Source: Escherichia phage vB_EcoM_G2285
Length of the DNA stretch: 64,000 bases
Sequence record: MK327933.1
Reading direction: 5' to 3' (one strand)
The notes below the pieces were generated by a model. The model was given only the letters and a program-made list of their open reading frames with translations, was not told the origin of the DNA and did no database searches. This document shows, piece by piece, positions 18,845 through 36,052 of this stretch (its first letter is position 1; each line of letters begins with the position of its first letter). Made by a program: the position numbers and the translations under genes.

Positions 18845-19104
18845 TTAAAATATTCTCGCAGTTGGTCAAATCCGCCAATGTGACTTCCGTCAGGAGCAAA
18901 CACTTGAGGCATAGTCAATCCGACTTGCGATTCACGTCCAAGCTTAACAAGAAGCTCAGTAATTTTCTCATCATCGAACACACCTTTTTCCGGCATAACA
19001 TTAATGAATTCGAATGGTTGTTTCTTAACAGTCAGCAATCGTTTCGCATTATCACAATAAATGCATTTATGAATAGTAGAGTCATACCCATACACTTTAA
19101 ACAT
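18841..19104 (-). CDS. nrdC: Thioredoxin/glutaredoxin NrdC
   Basis: ORF 18841-19119; from MFKVYGYDSTIHKCIYCDNAKRLL it is 87 aa with the CxxC active site; C-terminus ...GGFDQLREYFK. Confidence 0.85.
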   Translation of the reverse strand: MFKVYGYDSTIHKCIYCDNAKRLLTVKKQPFEFINVMPEKGVFDDEKITELLVKLGRESQVGLTMPQVFAPDGSHIGGFDQLREYFK

Positions 19105-19510
19105 TATTTTTCCTTTCATCGATTAAATATGCAATGCCAAATACAATACATGTAATAAAACCTGTGATACAGATAGAAACCAACAACACTGTACCAAAGA
19201 ACCAAATCAAGTTATCTTTAGTAGTTTGTTTGATATCCATCTCACGAATTTCTATAGCTATCGTATCACCTTTATTCAGAAGCGTATAAAACGATGGCGA
19301 TACACGCCTGTCAAAAACTCGTCCTTGTTCATCTTTATAGACTGCAATAAATTCTAATTTAGAATATTTTCCTGTAGATTGACCTGAGATTAATTCCACT
19401 ACCTCCACAGGAATTACTTTAGTTTCCATGTAAGTATTCTGGCTGCTCCAAATGAATGGAATAATGGCAAAAACTAAAGCTGTGATAAAACAACGAAGGC
19501 TATATCTCAT
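19097..19510 (-). CDS. Membrane protein
   Basis: 137 aa with N- and C-terminal hydrophobic helices. Confidence 0.5.
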   Translation of the reverse strand: MRYSLRCFITALVFAIIPFIWSSQNTYMETKVIPVEVVELISGQSTGKYSKLEFIAVYKDEQGRVFDRRVSPSFYTLLNKGDTIAIEIREMDIKQTTKDNLIWFFGTVLLVSICITGFITCIVFGIAYLIDERKNNV

Positions 19511-23992: not shown

Positions 23993-24259
23993 TTACTTAT
24001 CGCACTTAGCAACATAATTAGGCATATCACAGAATACGGAGCGAGTAACTACTCGGCCCTTTGACCATGCTTCAGTTGCTTGTCCGGCCGTGCTATTAAT
24101 ATAGCTTGATCTAATGTTCTCAATACCCTGAGAATGTGATGCATTTACCGAACCGTTAGAAGGCCCAGAAGACTGGTTACCACCAGCTCCTGCGCCCGTG
24201 GTAGCACCAACAGAGAATGCCATCATTACTGCGAATAAACCAATTACTAATTTTTTCAT
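23993..24259 (-). CDS. Small secreted glycine/serine-rich protein
   Basis: 88 aa; signal-peptide-like N-terminus MKKLVIGLFAVMMAFSVGA. Confidence 0.5.
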   Translation of the reverse strand: MKKLVIGLFAVMMAFSVGATTGAGAGGNQSSGPSNGSVNASHSQGIENIRSSYINSTAGQATEAWSKGRVVTRSVFCDMPNYVAKCDK

Positions 24260-24286: not shown

Positions 24287-25276
24287 CTATTTATAGTAAG
24301 AATTATGATTTTCGAGATAGACTTGCTCAAGGAAGTCGTCCCAGAAACTCATATCTACTTTTTGTTGCATACCGTTCTTAGCGGCTTGTTCTGACGCATG
24401 TTCAACTTGGTCAACGATATCTTCTAGGAATTCTTGTACAGTTTTAAATGTATGTTTACCAAGCTTAACATCGAGAATAAATGGAGCATCCTGAAGTGGG
24501 TAAACCAGGTCGCCGGTTTTGTAAATTTCCAATAGTTGAAGTCCACCACGACATGCATGACTCAATGCTTTCCAGTCAATACCTTCGTTGGCTTCGGCCT
24601 TACGAGCACGTTCACCATAGTTCTCTTCCAGTTTAACCAGGATGGCATTGAACTCTTTATTGGTTAACGTGTCTTGGAATTTACGGTCTAACAGATTATA
24701 GAATGTTTGCTTACCTGTTTTCTCGTTTTCGGTTTCAACCCACGAAGCAAATTCACCTACAGGCAGAACATTCTTCATATGTGATAAACGAATTACTGCA
24801 CCATTATCAAAGTATTGTCCCCATTCATTAGAACGTTTAAGGGCTTGACGAAGAACAGCCAGTCGAGAACCCTTGACACCGTATTTAGAAGCTTGCTTAC
24901 GGACATACCCTAAATAAGATTTCATGTTAGTGGTATAGAAACGAGACCTGTTATCTTGAATATACTTCCATACATCAGGCAAATCAGATTTAACTACTAG
25001 ACTTGGTGGAGTGTGAAGCATATCTAATGCGACGGTTTCACCATCCGCAGCTAGTTTAAAGAAATATTTGAGACTATACAACTCATGGTCTACGTCGTCT
25101 TTTGTGTTCTTAGAAGATGTGTTATTCGTGTTCTTGCTCATGTGTTCTTTAACGTTACCGGTCAAGATATCACGAGCATGAGGGACATAAATTTCTTTAA
25201 AATCGACATCAGATTCAGGAGTAGACGTTCCATAAAGGTGGCTACCAAAGTAGCTTTTCATAATTGTTTTCATCAT
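24287..25276 (-). CDS. Pol-beta-superfamily nucleotidyltransferase-fold protein
   Basis: 329 aa; N-terminal GSHLYGTSTPESDVDF matches the GS-x(9-13)-DxD nucleotidyltransferase signature; further acidic residues DDVDHE about 40 aa downstream. Confidence 0.5.
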   Translation of the reverse strand: MMKTIMKSYFGSHLYGTSTPESDVDFKEIYVPHARDILTGNVKEHMSKNTNNTSSKNTKDDVDHELYSLKYFFKLAADGETVALDMLHTPPSLVVKSDLPDVWKYIQDNRSRFYTTNMKSYLGYVRKQASKYGVKGSRLAVLRQALKRSNEWGQYFDNGAVIRLSHMKNVLPVGEFASWVETENEKTGKQTFYNLLDRKFQDTLTNKEFNAILVKLEENYGERARKAEANEGIDWKALSHACRGGLQLLEIYKTGDLVYPLQDAPFILDVKLGKHTFKTVQEFLEDIVDQVEHASEQAAKNGMQQKVDMSFWDDFLEQVYLENHNSYYK

Positions 25277-25746
25277 TTAGCCTTATATTCAAGAGTAAGA
25301 CAGACTTTTTCTTTACGAGCTTTAAGGTATTCACCTATTAATGATTTCTTACGTTCAATAGGCTCAAGTCCATTTTTAATTCGTTCTTGGTTTTGCGCAA
25401 TGAGCTCAATTTCTTTATAATATTTTCTGTCGTTATATTTGTCTAACAACCAAGACGGACCAATTACTAACCCGGTAGCAATAAAAGCCATGACTGCTAC
25501 AATTAAAATGCCTACACCAATTGAGGCTGGAACTAATGTCCATAGACTGCTAAAAACAAAGAATTTAGTTAAAATTTCCTGGCCAACGATTGTGACTGCT
25601 GCTAAAATCGCAAATCCAATAATTGAAACAGCCAATACCGGGATTAACGTTTTCCAAAAATAAGCACACAACGTTTTCGGACGATTCCATGTACTATTGA
25701 ACGCGGCATAAATTTTAAAGTGCCAAGAGTTTTCATTGATAATCAT
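25273..25746 (-). CDS. Membrane protein (about 3 TM helices) translationally coupled to the nucleotidyltransferase-fold gene
   Basis: 157 aa; hydrophobic stretches LIPVLAVSIIGFAILAAVTIV and VGILIVAVMAFIATGLVI; ATGA overlap with 24287-25276. Confidence 0.5.
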   Translation of the reverse strand: MIINENSWHFKIYAAFNSTWNRPKTLCAYFWKTLIPVLAVSIIGFAILAAVTIVGQEILTKFFVFSSLWTLVPASIGVGILIVAVMAFIATGLVIGPSWLLDKYNDRKYYKEIELIAQNQERIKNGLEPIERKKSLIGEYLKARKEKVCLTLEYKAK

Positions 25747-28272: not shown

Positions 28273-28455
28273 TTATAGTGAATTCACGTAGTCAATGAGT
28301 TCTTGTTCTTTCCTGTCAAATGATTCCAACAATGCTTGATATTCTTCGACCGTCAAAGGAGCATATTCATCATACGCATTGGTGGCTGCTTGTTCATCTA
28401 ATAGGTCATGGATAAGTTCGAACAGTTTAGCTTTCTCTTCTTTAGTTAATTTCAT
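28273..28455 (-). CDS. Hypothetical small acidic protein
   Basis: 60 aa ORF. Confidence 0.45.
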   Translation of the reverse strand: MKLTKEEKAKLFELIHDLLDEQAATNAYDEYAPLTVEEYQALLESFDRKEQELIDYVNSL

Positions 28456-28946
28456 TTAGGTTCCCAATCAACAATCACAATTTCTAGTTTAGTGGAATAC
28501 GTATCTAAAATCTCTTCGATGACATCCCAGTTTCCACCACCAATACCTGCACCAATTCTTGGCATATAAATTACAGGCTTTGTTATCTTATTCTTTCCGA
28601 ATTCATTTAATTCTATTATACAATTCATTAAAGCATAGTACTCAAAATTAGGTCCCGGCTCAAACTGCGTATAAAGATTAAAGCAATAAGCTTTATGGGT
28701 CTTAAAATATTTTTCATAAACCGAATAAGTCCCGAGTTTAGACTCGTCTCCGAATTCGGTTTGAAGTTTATCGGCTTCTAAAATTTTTGGATAAGCCTTT
28801 GCTAATTGACCTGCCACACCGGCGCCCATTGTATGAAAACAATTACACCCATGAGCTATATTATTACCTTTAGAAAACAGGGCGACAATATCGCCCTTGA
28901 TATAGTTTTTAATCACTTGCTGCAAGTCCTCTAGTATAAGAGTCAA
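28452..28946 (-). CDS. Putative macrodomain-like (ADP-ribose binding/processing) protein
   Basis: 164 aa; NNIAHGCNCFHTMGAGVAGQLAKAYP and PRIGAGIGGGNWDV resemble the two glycine-rich macrodomain motifs; recalled pattern only. Confidence 0.4.
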   Translation of the reverse strand: MTLILEDLQQVIKNYIKGDIVALFSKGNNIAHGCNCFHTMGAGVAGQLAKAYPKILEADKLQTEFGDESKLGTYSVYEKYFKTHKAYCFNLYTQFEPGPNFEYYALMNCIIELNEFGKNKITKPVIYMPRIGAGIGGGNWDVIEEILDTYSTKLEIVIVDWEPK

Positions 28947-29256
28947 CTAGACGGTCCACCATAGAATTGCATGCTGCCTTATCTTTAGGTTCCGCCACCG
29001 AGCATTCTAATATTTGCCATTTTTTATAGTATCTTTTAATTAAGGTAGACGCCTTGAACCTACTAGACGCCCCATCTTTTTCTCCGTCTTTATACGCATA
29101 TAACAATTTTTGTGAAAAATCTACTTTACACTCTTGACTTTTACCGCAATAATCAGACGCTGTTCTGTTTGTATACTCCGTTACATCGGTATATGTAGTA
29201 TTAGCAAGAGCATTAAATGAAACCAAGCCAACTATTAAAGCCAACATTTTGGTCAT
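28909..29256 (-). CDS. Secreted/periplasmic small protein
   Basis: 115 aa; N-terminal signal peptide MTKMLALIVGLVSFNALA; four cysteines. Confidence 0.5.
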   Translation of the reverse strand: MTKMLALIVGLVSFNALANTTYTDVTEYTNRTASDYCGKSQECKVDFSQKLLYAYKDGEKDGASSRFKASTLIKRYYKKWQILECSVAEPKDKAACNSMVDRLVDSYTRGLAASD

Positions 29257-29795
29257 TCTTTTATTTCCAGTAGTTTATTTGATTTAAGGTAATTAGCCTT
29301 TTCTAGGACTTCAGAAGCATATTTACTTCCAGCACTTGTCTTCCATCCCGCATTATATGAGGATATAGCTTTTCTTATATCCCCGTTATGTATATTTAAC
29401 CAATAAGAAAATTCGATATAAGCCCATCTGGCTGAATTAGACCGCTTAGATAGCATTTTCTTAATTTGGGCATCAGTCATATTATAACCAAGCTGGTTAA
29501 TTCTTGCCCTCATTGTTGGTAGATAATTTTGGAACATTCCATACGCATGGTGACCTTTCTTATCTTTAAGATTAATACCGGCAGATGATTCCTGCCATAG
29601 TATTGCGGCCATTATGTATCCAAGTCCTTTCTTATGCATATTTTCATGCGTTTTAAATTTTCCATCCTTAGAAAACTGTTCCCCAAACTGATAAGCATAA
29701 TTCAAGTTATCGAGTTGGACATTACTAAAAGTATGCTCGGAGCTATGTGCTGATAACGAAAGAGCAAATAGACCAGCGAGTAGTGCTTTTCTCAT
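29253..29795 (-). CDS. Secreted lytic transglycosylase-like protein (SLT domain)
   Basis: 180 aa; signal peptide MRKALLAGLFALSLSAHS; catalytic-type motif LWQESSAG and AYGMFQ. Confidence 0.6.
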   Translation of the reverse strand: MRKALLAGLFALSLSAHSSEHTFSNVQLDNLNYAYQFGEQFSKDGKFKTHENMHKKGLGYIMAAILWQESSAGINLKDKKGHHAYGMFQNYLPTMRARINQLGYNMTDAQIKKMLSKRSNSARWAYIEFSYWLNIHNGDIRKAISSYNAGWKTSAGSKYASEVLEKANYLKSNKLLEIKE

Positions 29796-29803
29796 GTTTA
29801 CCT

Positions 29804-30262
29804 CTAGATTTTAATCACTGCTTTAGAAGCTTTTCCTGGTAGTCGTTTACTGTTAATAATAGCCATTCTACATTGAAGAGTCTTCATTTTGAATGCTGGA
29901 TTTTCGCGACAAACTGTAAGTCCTAACCAAAGATTTCCATCAGTTATTTCTAAACGGCCCGGGCGATATTCGACACCTTCGACAAAATCTTCATCAACAT
30001 CTGGACGTGCCGGCATTGATAAAAATTCTGCAACTTCTTTAACATGATTTTTTACTTTATGAAATAATTCAAAAACGTAATTCTCATCTATTTCTCTCTG
30101 GATGGCACGATCTAAGAGATGTTGAGAATACTTGATATGAAAGCCTGGTAGTCCAAGAGACTTTGCAGCATCTTTTATACCGGCATTTATTTTGCGGAAC
30201 TCCGTTTCAAAGATTCGACGGAGTTTATTACGGCGGATAAAAACGTCTGAATTGATAGTCAT
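29804..30262 (-). CDS. regB: Putative site-specific endoribonuclease RegB
   Basis: 152 aa ORF (RegB is about 153 aa) located between tk and denV; assigned by size and synteny, not by a motif. Confidence 0.45.
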   Translation of the reverse strand: MTINSDVFIRRNKLRRIFETEFRKINAGIKDAAKSLGLPGFHIKYSQHLLDRAIQREIDENYVFELFHKVKNHVKEVAEFLSMPARPDVDEDFVEGVEYRPGRLEITDGNLWLGLTVCRENPAFKMKTLQCRMAIINSKRLPGKASKAVIKI

Positions 30263-35746: not shown

Positions 35747-36052
35747 TTATTTTCCTCGACATTCTTTAATGAAATTTTCTAGATTGGTAGATTCAATAGC
35801 TTTTTTACGAGCTTCTGCGTGTTCTTCTTCGGTCAATTTACGTTTATAATTGACCCAGACATTATGGTCGAAACTAGTCGTGGCATATAATAACAAAGCT
35901 CCGACGAATAATAAAAACGGTGATAAGAATACAAAACCAGGAACACCATCCATATCGTAAGCCTTTTGTAATACTGCAACAGAAAGGGCTGCGTAAAAAA
36001 GTGATGCAAATATTGTTAAAAGACCAATTCGGTTGGTTTCGCCTAATTTCAT
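35747..36052 (-). CDS. Small membrane protein with C-terminal ENFIKECR motif
   Basis: 101 aa; two hydrophobic helices; C-terminus ...STNLENFIKECRGK. Confidence 0.55.
   Translation of the reverse strand: MKLGETNRIGLLTIFASLFYAALSVAVLQKAYDMDGVPGFVFLSPFLLFVGALLLYATTSFDHNVWVNYKRKLTEEEHAEARKKAIESTNLENFIKECRGK

Follow-up and report, generated by a model that had tools for sequence, protein, structure and literature searches.

The prereplicative genes vs.1 and vs of Escherichia phage vB_EcoM_G2285 were analyzed in a 64,000-nucleotide (nt) stretch of its genome (MK327933.1, the whole of which is referred to here as the window), where they appear as two overlapping open reading frames (ORFs) on the minus strand. 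The results as a whole are best explained by an exported Vs.1 that serves as an accessory muralytic enzyme, together with an exported Vs that acts in the periplasm, and we regard this reading as probable. An earlier note on the same DNA had described a signal-peptide enzyme of the SLT type encoded beside a signal-peptide protein with four cysteines. That description stands, as does the overlap of the two ORFs, which share the bases ATGA (Table 1). What the note missed is that vs.1, vs and the SLT similarity of vs.1 are all known already, the similarity having been published in 2003 and 2006, and that Vs carries a conflicting label as a modifier of valyl-tRNA synthetase (ValRS).

Judged by sequence, both ORFs are RB69-type alleles of the T4-family genes vs.1 and vs. 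RB69 (genus Mosigvirus) shares 99% DNA identity over 1.9 kb around the locus, 656 phage records match the region, and the RB69 annotation lists, in order of transcription, regB, vs.1, vs, tk.4, tk.2, tk, rI.1 and rI. In PHROGs the 180-amino-acid (aa) protein belongs to phrog_600 (unknown function, 3.7e-67) and the 115-aa protein to phrog_1256 (valyl tRNA synthetase modifier, 5e-35), while the flanking genes encode RegB (Pfam, 6e-69) and a macro-domain protein. The order regB-vs.1-vs-tk.4 is common to T4, VR26, Klebsiella phage F48 and EcoM_005. Vs.1 is 84% identical to the T4-type protein (T4 Vs.1, NP_049725, UniProt P13311) and ~99% identical over the region to RB69 Vs.1 (NP_861805), with the same length, signal peptide, motifs and position between regB and vs; no substantive difference separates them, and the gene of the window is an allele of the same gene. 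Vs is the orthologue of T4 Vs (NP_049724, UniProt P13310; phrog_1256; PF26829) at 67% identity, with the same length, signal peptide, cysteines and C-terminal motif, and the PF26829 assignment is precomputed on all of its relatives. Chance ORFs were rejected as an explanation, since both genes are kept in hundreds of genomes.

Every sequence and fold criterion tested places Vs.1 in the SLT/GH23 superfamily. Among 36 aligned sequences with identities down to 39%, the invariant residues of Vs.1 are those that define family-1 lytic transglycosylases, namely E69, S71, G86, Q89, N90, Y147, N148, G150 and Y159. Of the two SLT motifs pointed out in the earlier note, LWQESSAG occupies aa 66-73 (nt 29577-29600) and AYGMFQ occupies aa 84-89 (nt 29529-29546); SYNAG at aa 146-150 can be added to them as a third. 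The region of motif III and Y159 aligned with AYNTG and DYSNDV of goose-type lysozyme. In a profile alignment by hhalign, E69 of Vs.1 fell on E64 of MltE and E505 of Slt70 (precursor numbering; E478 in the mature protein), which we take from the literature to be the catalytic glutamates; the MltE and Slt70 sequences were drawn from the E. coli MG1655 genome. Furthermore, Pfam SLT was matched by all 36 homologues (best 1.3e-7), and its gathering threshold of 21.3 bits was passed by the proteins of T4 (25.1 bits), DLP2 (26.3), GAP161 (24.9) and Det7 (21.6). Several database sources name the homologues “Transglycosylase SLT domain-containing protein”. Nolan et al. 2006 (PMC1524935) found vs.1 to match SLT marginally in six of six T4-like genomes and cited earlier PSI-BLAST SLT results for T4 vs.1. 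Beyond that paper and two omics or screen supplements, no functional study of Vs.1 was found in the literature searched. The Vs.1 family profile searched against PDB sequences returned only spurious metacaspase matches and a sub-threshold match to goose lysozyme, single-sequence searches of Vs.1 and Vs against PDB sequences gave nothing useful, and a scan of both proteins against NCBIfam gave no match to either.

The AlphaFold2 model of Vs.1, built on the alignment, reached a predicted local distance difference test score (pLDDT) of 90.3 and a predicted template modeling score (pTM) of 0.83, and displays a lysozyme-like, all-helical fold. Its best matches in the PDB are all GH23 or lysozyme-like, comprising a Ralstonia GH23 chitinase, MltD, Slt, LtgA and the phi6 P5 lysin, and the Foldseek matches to GH23 enzymes have a probability of ~1.0 at template modeling (TM) scores of ~0.45-0.52. 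With E. coli MltE (EmtA) and the catalytic domain of Slt70, Vs.1 shares the lysozyme-like helical fold, the E-S motif, motifs like G-L-M-Q and A-Y-N-x-G and, by prediction, the periplasmic location. It differs in that identity is only ~15-30% over short stretches and in being phage-encoded and expressed early; moreover, it consists of one soluble domain that carries a conserved N-terminal helix of its own (Q27, N30, A34, G38), whereas MltE has a lipobox and Slt70 a superhelical doughnut domain, neither of which occurs in Vs.1. The phi6 P5 lysin and other phage SLT-type enzymes are alike in GH23 fold and phage origin; these, however, are associated with the virion or serve in lysis and have no Sec signal peptide, in contrast to Vs.1, which is predicted to be exported, non-structural and prereplicative. 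E128 and W132 (window ~29400-29414, minus strand) are also invariant among the 36 homologues, outside the canonical SLT motifs.

Regarding export, the signal peptides proposed earlier for both ORFs have Sec-type anatomy, with a charged start, a hydrophobic core and an AXA-type cleavage site. These elements are MRK, ALLAGLFALSLS and AHS|SE in Vs.1, and MTK, MLALIVGLVSF and NALA|NT in Vs. The calls were made with a crude heuristic rule (charged start, hydrophobic core, cleavage-site pattern). Of the 102 minus-strand ORFs in the window that start with ATG and reach 60 aa, six passed this rule, including rI and the glycine-rich ORF 23993-24259. The pattern was found in 35/35 other Vs homologues and in 34/35 other Vs.1 homologues, the N-terminus of the sole exception (P0118) being seemingly over-extended. 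It also occurs in the distant Vs homologues of Acinetobacter phages and GAP161, and in Vs.1 homologues of Ackermannviridae, Felixounavirus and Pseudotevenvirus. The signal region is less conserved in residue identity than the mature part, yet it is hydrophobic throughout. The low rate of passing ORFs, the pattern across homologues and the hydrophobicity kept despite low identity place the calls above chance, and both Vs.1 and Vs would be exported and cleaved. In T4 the predicted mature N-termini are SEHTFSNVQLDNMR for Vs.1 and DTSYTEIR (or a neighboring Ala/Ser) for Vs. A lipoprotein signal was rejected, as the cleavage site has no lipobox cysteine.

The four cysteines attributed to Vs in the earlier note are exactly C37, C43, C85 and C96. 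The AlphaFold2 model of Vs (pLDDT 86) consists of four helices at residues 20-37, 41-64, 69-85 and 90-114, and two disulfides probably staple its two hairpins. The most conserved segment, SMVDRLVDSY.RGL (aa 98-111), follows the pair Cys85...Cys96, and the invariant columns among 36 sequences include C85, C96, S98, M99, V100, R102, D105, Y107, R109, G110 and L111. The family is narrow: 44 clusters were collected by a word-indexed search and eight representatives at E <=1e-3 by an exhaustive profile search of 1.84 billion proteins, in which no bacterial homologue pointing to a function was found among the representatives. Profile comparison detected distant homologues in Acinetobacter phage DLP2 and Cronobacter phage GAP161 (probability 88%, E 3e-6); both have a signal peptide, and the cysteines align in the DLP2 homologue. 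No fold resembling the model was found in the PDB or among viral predicted structures, the matches being confined to its own family, weak non-specific helical proteins and phage “lipoproteins”. Against the PDB no match was significant, the DUF1311 entry 3gi7 ranking 30th (E 4.4, probability 0.05), and the copy of Pfam that was scanned gave no match for any Vs homologue. Neither the fold nor the Pfam searches revealed similarity to the lysozyme and transglycosylase inhibitor families Ivy, PliC/MliC, PliG and LprI/DUF1311 or to Spackle. Spackle (gp61.3) and RI of T4, which are made early, resemble Vs in being small and helical with an N-terminal signal and in acting in the periplasm of the infected cell, which is a prediction for Vs. 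Spackle is a periplasmic inhibitor of a phage muralytic enzyme and thus offers a functional analogy. However, neither protein has sequence or detectable fold similarity to Vs, and Spackle was absent among the PDB matches of the Vs model. Shortened vs genes of 50-85 aa occur in phage vB_EcoM_005 (L005, 2393-2650) and in the relatives P0160, P0161 and P0163; the first cysteine pair is missing from these, whereas their signal peptide and C-terminal motif are preserved, and they may be decaying or remodelled copies.

The two genes are closely linked. Of 23 IMG/VR loci encoding a Vs relative, all 23 have vs.1 immediately upstream of vs, including a locus (L035, 28% Vs identity) in which the two are adjacent though regB and tk.4 are not neighbors. 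In the window, the ATGA overlap suggests translational coupling of vs to vs.1; elsewhere the junction is an 8-nt overlap (T4), abutting (VR26, EcoM_005), a 2-nt gap (F48) or a 1-nt overlap (DLP2). The gene rI lies 1.5 kb from the vs block in the window and is contiguous with it in Acinetobacter phages, two of which, both T4-like, carry a contiguous run made up of vs.1, a gene resembling vs, one for a signal-peptide protein (phrog_4957), one for a membrane or signal-peptide protein (phrog_6298), then rI and a membrane protein gene. This block (L008 1938-3784, L035 1971-3838), the genes of which overlap tightly, looks like an envelope-directed gene module. This gene order was the only support obtained for the suggestion in the earlier note that such proteins may remodel peptidoglycan or sense superinfection. 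The polytopic membrane protein following rI in it is, by eye, seemingly homologous to that encoded at 25273-25746 of the window. Across phages, Vs.1 was found by tblastn in ~2060 records, including Straboviridae, Ackermannviridae and Felixounavirus. In T4 both genes show early RNA and middle protein timing, and both proteins have been detected (PMC9697503 supplement). In a CRISPRi-ART screen of T4, vs.1 was scored “Semi-Fit” (0.81, Kolmogorov-Smirnov (KS) p 0.099) and vs “Not Fit” (PMC11879866 supplement).

Several observations count against the proposed reading, those on the enzyme being gathered here and those on Vs in the next paragraph. The Pfam SLT match (PF01464) holds at family level but is marginal for the Vs.1 of the window alone, which scores 18.8 bits (E 0.0013), under the threshold. 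The hhalign alignments to the single E. coli sequences of MltE and Slt70 carry little statistical weight (E ~0.1), and the Foldseek E-values are modest, from 1e-2 to 1e-1 (best 1.4e-2, TM ~0.5). The main uncertainty for Vs.1 is between a lytic transglycosylase and a hydrolase, since sequence cannot tell the former from a hydrolytic GH23 enzyme. The top fold match is a GH23 chitinase, the family profile aligns with goose-type lysozyme over motif III, and the second acidic residue, E128, is invariant with no explanation and could bear on hydrolase versus transglycosylase chemistry; all of these would suit a GH23-fold hydrolase of the goose-type lysozyme or chitinase kind, or a non-catalytic peptidoglycan-binding protein. 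We nevertheless consider it quite unlikely that Vs.1 is no lytic transglycosylase, because motifs I-III (E-S, G-x-x-Q and x-Y-N-x-G) and Pfam SLT fit the family-1 enzymes, and the invariance of the predicted catalytic Glu69 argues against a non-catalytic role. The predicted exported, muralytic-type fold would also be appropriate for a second, Sec-delivered endolysin that contributes directly to lysis in the manner of signal-peptide or signal-anchor-release (SAR) endolysins, as would the name “putative lysin” in some records and the location of homologues beside rIIA/rIIB in Felixounavirus and near rI in Acinetobacter phages. Such a role seems very unlikely. The gene lies in the prereplicative region behind regB, between regB and tk, its T4 counterpart yields early RNA and middle protein, and neither the late expression nor the lysis-cassette context (holin, spanin) of SAR or signal-peptide endolysins was found, with no holin or spanin gene adjacent. 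Furthermore, the genome carries its own endolysin gene e, and T4 e mutants fail to lyse, indicating that Vs.1 is not sufficient.

For Vs, the main rival is the annotated cytoplasmic role, according to which it is the “tau” factor of ~10 kDa that binds host ValRS in the cytoplasm, with either a hydrophobic N-terminus unused for export or only a part of the protein exported. The label is long-standing and stands on RB69, T4, hundreds of records and phrog_1256. The binding of ValRS by Vs is restated in PMC8076793, citing Muller and Marchin 1975/1977. A cytoplasmic location, which the label requires, is not what the sequence predicts. Sec-type signal peptide character is kept in every Vs homologue, down to 28% identity; the four invariant cysteines are placed for hairpin-stapling disulfides, which are not formed in the cytoplasm; and in Acinetobacter phages vs lies within a run of exported and membrane proteins. 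An internal cytoplasmic isoform was rejected, since vs has no in-frame internal start codon fit for a near-full-length cytoplasmic form. Production of His-tagged full-length T4 Vs in the E. coli cytoplasm gave insoluble protein (PMC8076793), as could happen if the signal peptide stays uncleaved and the disulfides unformed, although this observation is non-specific. The label, with its cytoplasmic target, is therefore at odds with the predicted export signal and probable disulfides of the family; membership of the Vs family holds, whereas the assumed location appears to fail. This conflict was not found stated in the literature searched, in which there was also no account of how the genetically defined vs locus was tied to the ORF. 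The assignment presumably rests on map position. In favor of the annotated role, the tau factor is of ~10 kDa, a size that the predicted mature Vs (11.0 kDa) fits better than the 13-kDa precursor does. On balance, the tau factor is a possible but doubtful identity for the product of this ORF. It is also conceivable that Vs works in the periplasm to regulate or inhibit Vs.1 or some other muralytic enzyme, imposing a restraint like that of Spackle on gp5 lysozyme. The suggested ATGA coupling, the adjacency in 23/23 loci that survives differing flanking genes, the predicted export of both proteins and the C-terminal helix, conserved as a binding surface would be, point in this direction. Still, such a role seems unlikely, as Vs.1 has no detectable Vs-like neighbor in Aeromonas, Ackermannviridae and Felixounavirus phages, two ORFs part the pair in GAP161, the Vs model shows no fold likeness to known lysozyme or transglycosylase inhibitors or to Spackle, and knock-down of vs had no fitness effect while that of vs.1 was mild. 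With ~2060 phage records against ~795 for Vs, Vs.1 is far commoner, so that Vs cannot be an obligatory partner, and tight gene packing is general in the region, where vs also overlaps the cytoplasmic macro-domain gene tk.4. Vs as a partner or regulator of Vs.1 is thus attractive but weakly supported. Only tentatively do we suggest the fuller version, in which the ORF annotated as a ValRS modifier encodes a secreted, disulfide-stapled periplasmic protein that works with or regulates Vs.1 within an rI-linked early envelope module, tau being encoded elsewhere or the ValRS association being non-physiological.

Under the preferred reading of an exported muralytic Vs.1 and a periplasmic Vs, Vs.1 would be made with a cleavable Sec signal peptide and freed into the periplasm of the infected cell as a basic single-domain enzyme of 18.7 kDa. 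Glu69 of the E-S motif would then act as the single general acid/base that cuts the bond between N-acetylmuramic acid (MurNAc) and N-acetylglucosamine (GlcNAc) of host peptidoglycan, most likely leaving 1,6-anhydroMurNAc ends, like family-1 lytic transglycosylases. It would thereby work as MltE or the Slt70 catalytic domain does, in a phage-specific form. Its synthesis before replication would imply an accessory, envelope-remodeling activity and not that of an endolysin. Vs would be translated from the vs.1 mRNA via the ATGA overlap, and subsequently exported, oxidized and folded as an 11-kDa four-helix protein, whose most likely place of action is the periplasm rather than the cytoplasm, possibly alongside Vs.1.

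Table 1. Features of the vs.1-vs locus, with positions in the window.
Feature	Position	Strand	Remarks
vs.1 coding sequence	29253..29795	(-)	180 aa precursor, ~18.7 kDa mature, pI 9.6; predicted exported SLT/GH23-type peptidoglycan lytic transglycosylase
vs.1 signal peptide, aa 1-18, MRKALLAGLFALSLSAHS	29742..29795	(-)	predicted cleavage AHS/SE (after Ser18); low-confidence N-terminal helix in model
SLT motif I, QESS, aa 68-71	29583..29594	(-)	predicted catalytic Glu69; E69 and S71 invariant in 36 sequences
SLT motif II, GMFQN, aa 86-90	29526..29540	(-)	canonical G-L-M-Q; G86, Q89 and N90 invariant; aligned with GLMQ of MltE and Slt70
SLT motif III, SYNAG, aa 146-150	29346..29360	(-)	canonical A-Y-N-x-G; Y147, N148 and G150 invariant
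Y159 of Vs.1, after motif III	29319-29321	(-)	invariant in the 36-sequence alignment
vs coding sequence	28909..29256	(-)	115 aa precursor, 12.9 kDa; mature 97 aa, 11.0 kDa; predicted exported four-helix protein, annotated valyl-tRNA synthetase modifier
vs signal peptide, aa 1-18, MTKMLALIVGLVSFNALA	29203..29256	(-)	predicted cleavage ALA/NT; pLDDT <50 in model
Cys37...Cys43 (C-x5-C), around the helix 1/helix 2 loop	29128..29148	(-)	invariant in 36 sequences; aligned in the distant L008 homologue
Cys85...Cys96 (C-x10-C), around the helix 3/helix 4 loop	28969..29004	(-)	invariant in 36 sequences
ATGA overlap	29253..29256	(-)	vs start codon shares bases with the vs.1 stop codon
Shine-Dalgarno GAGG of vs.1	29801..29804	(-)	read from sequence; overlaps the regB stop TAG at 29804-29806

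Additional observations concern the surroundings of the pair. The ribosome-binding site of vs.1 is GAGG, not GGAG as cleaved by RegB. A scan for promoters and terminators gave promoter signals no higher than shuffled expectation. A perfect 8-bp G+C-rich hairpin is located at 28879-28897 (minus strand), 12 nt 3' of the vs stop and within the first codons of tk.4, followed by GTTTTCT with a U-run to ~28870. Its stem is identical in T4, VR26 and EcoM_005, where only the loop changes, and it is absent in Klebsiella phage F48. The hairpin could be a terminator, an attenuator or an RNA-stability element parting vs.1-vs from tk.4, or could reflect a coding constraint on KGDIVAL. The gene tk.4 itself (28452-28916, minus strand) encodes a macro-domain protein (Pfam Macro 3.4e-6; phrog_335 “phosphatase”), and, by its annotated start, it shares 8 nt with the end of vs; in the ORF list it reaches back to a TTG at 28946 that is unlikely to be the true start. 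Further ORFs on the minus strand at 23993-24259, 19097-19510 and 35747-36052 are conserved (phrog_2243, phrog_2547 and phrog_9798, respectively), have no assigned function, and possess N-termini like signal peptides or membrane anchors; the Gly/Ser-rich protein of 23993-24259 has two C-terminal cysteines.

In other respects, the present results are a routine re-identification of annotated genes in T4-type phages, which are a model system. The gene vs.1, classed among genes of “purely unknown function” in the 2025 genome-wide knock-down screen, is one of the few uncharacterized genes with a fitness effect there (PMC11879866), and firm evidence of an exported, murein-cleaving Vs.1 would provide its phenotype with a testable mechanism. 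If Vs is indeed periplasmic, the annotation on ~800 phage genome records would need to be revisited, and the gene responsible for the phage modification of a host aminoacyl-tRNA synthetase described in the 1970s would be open again.

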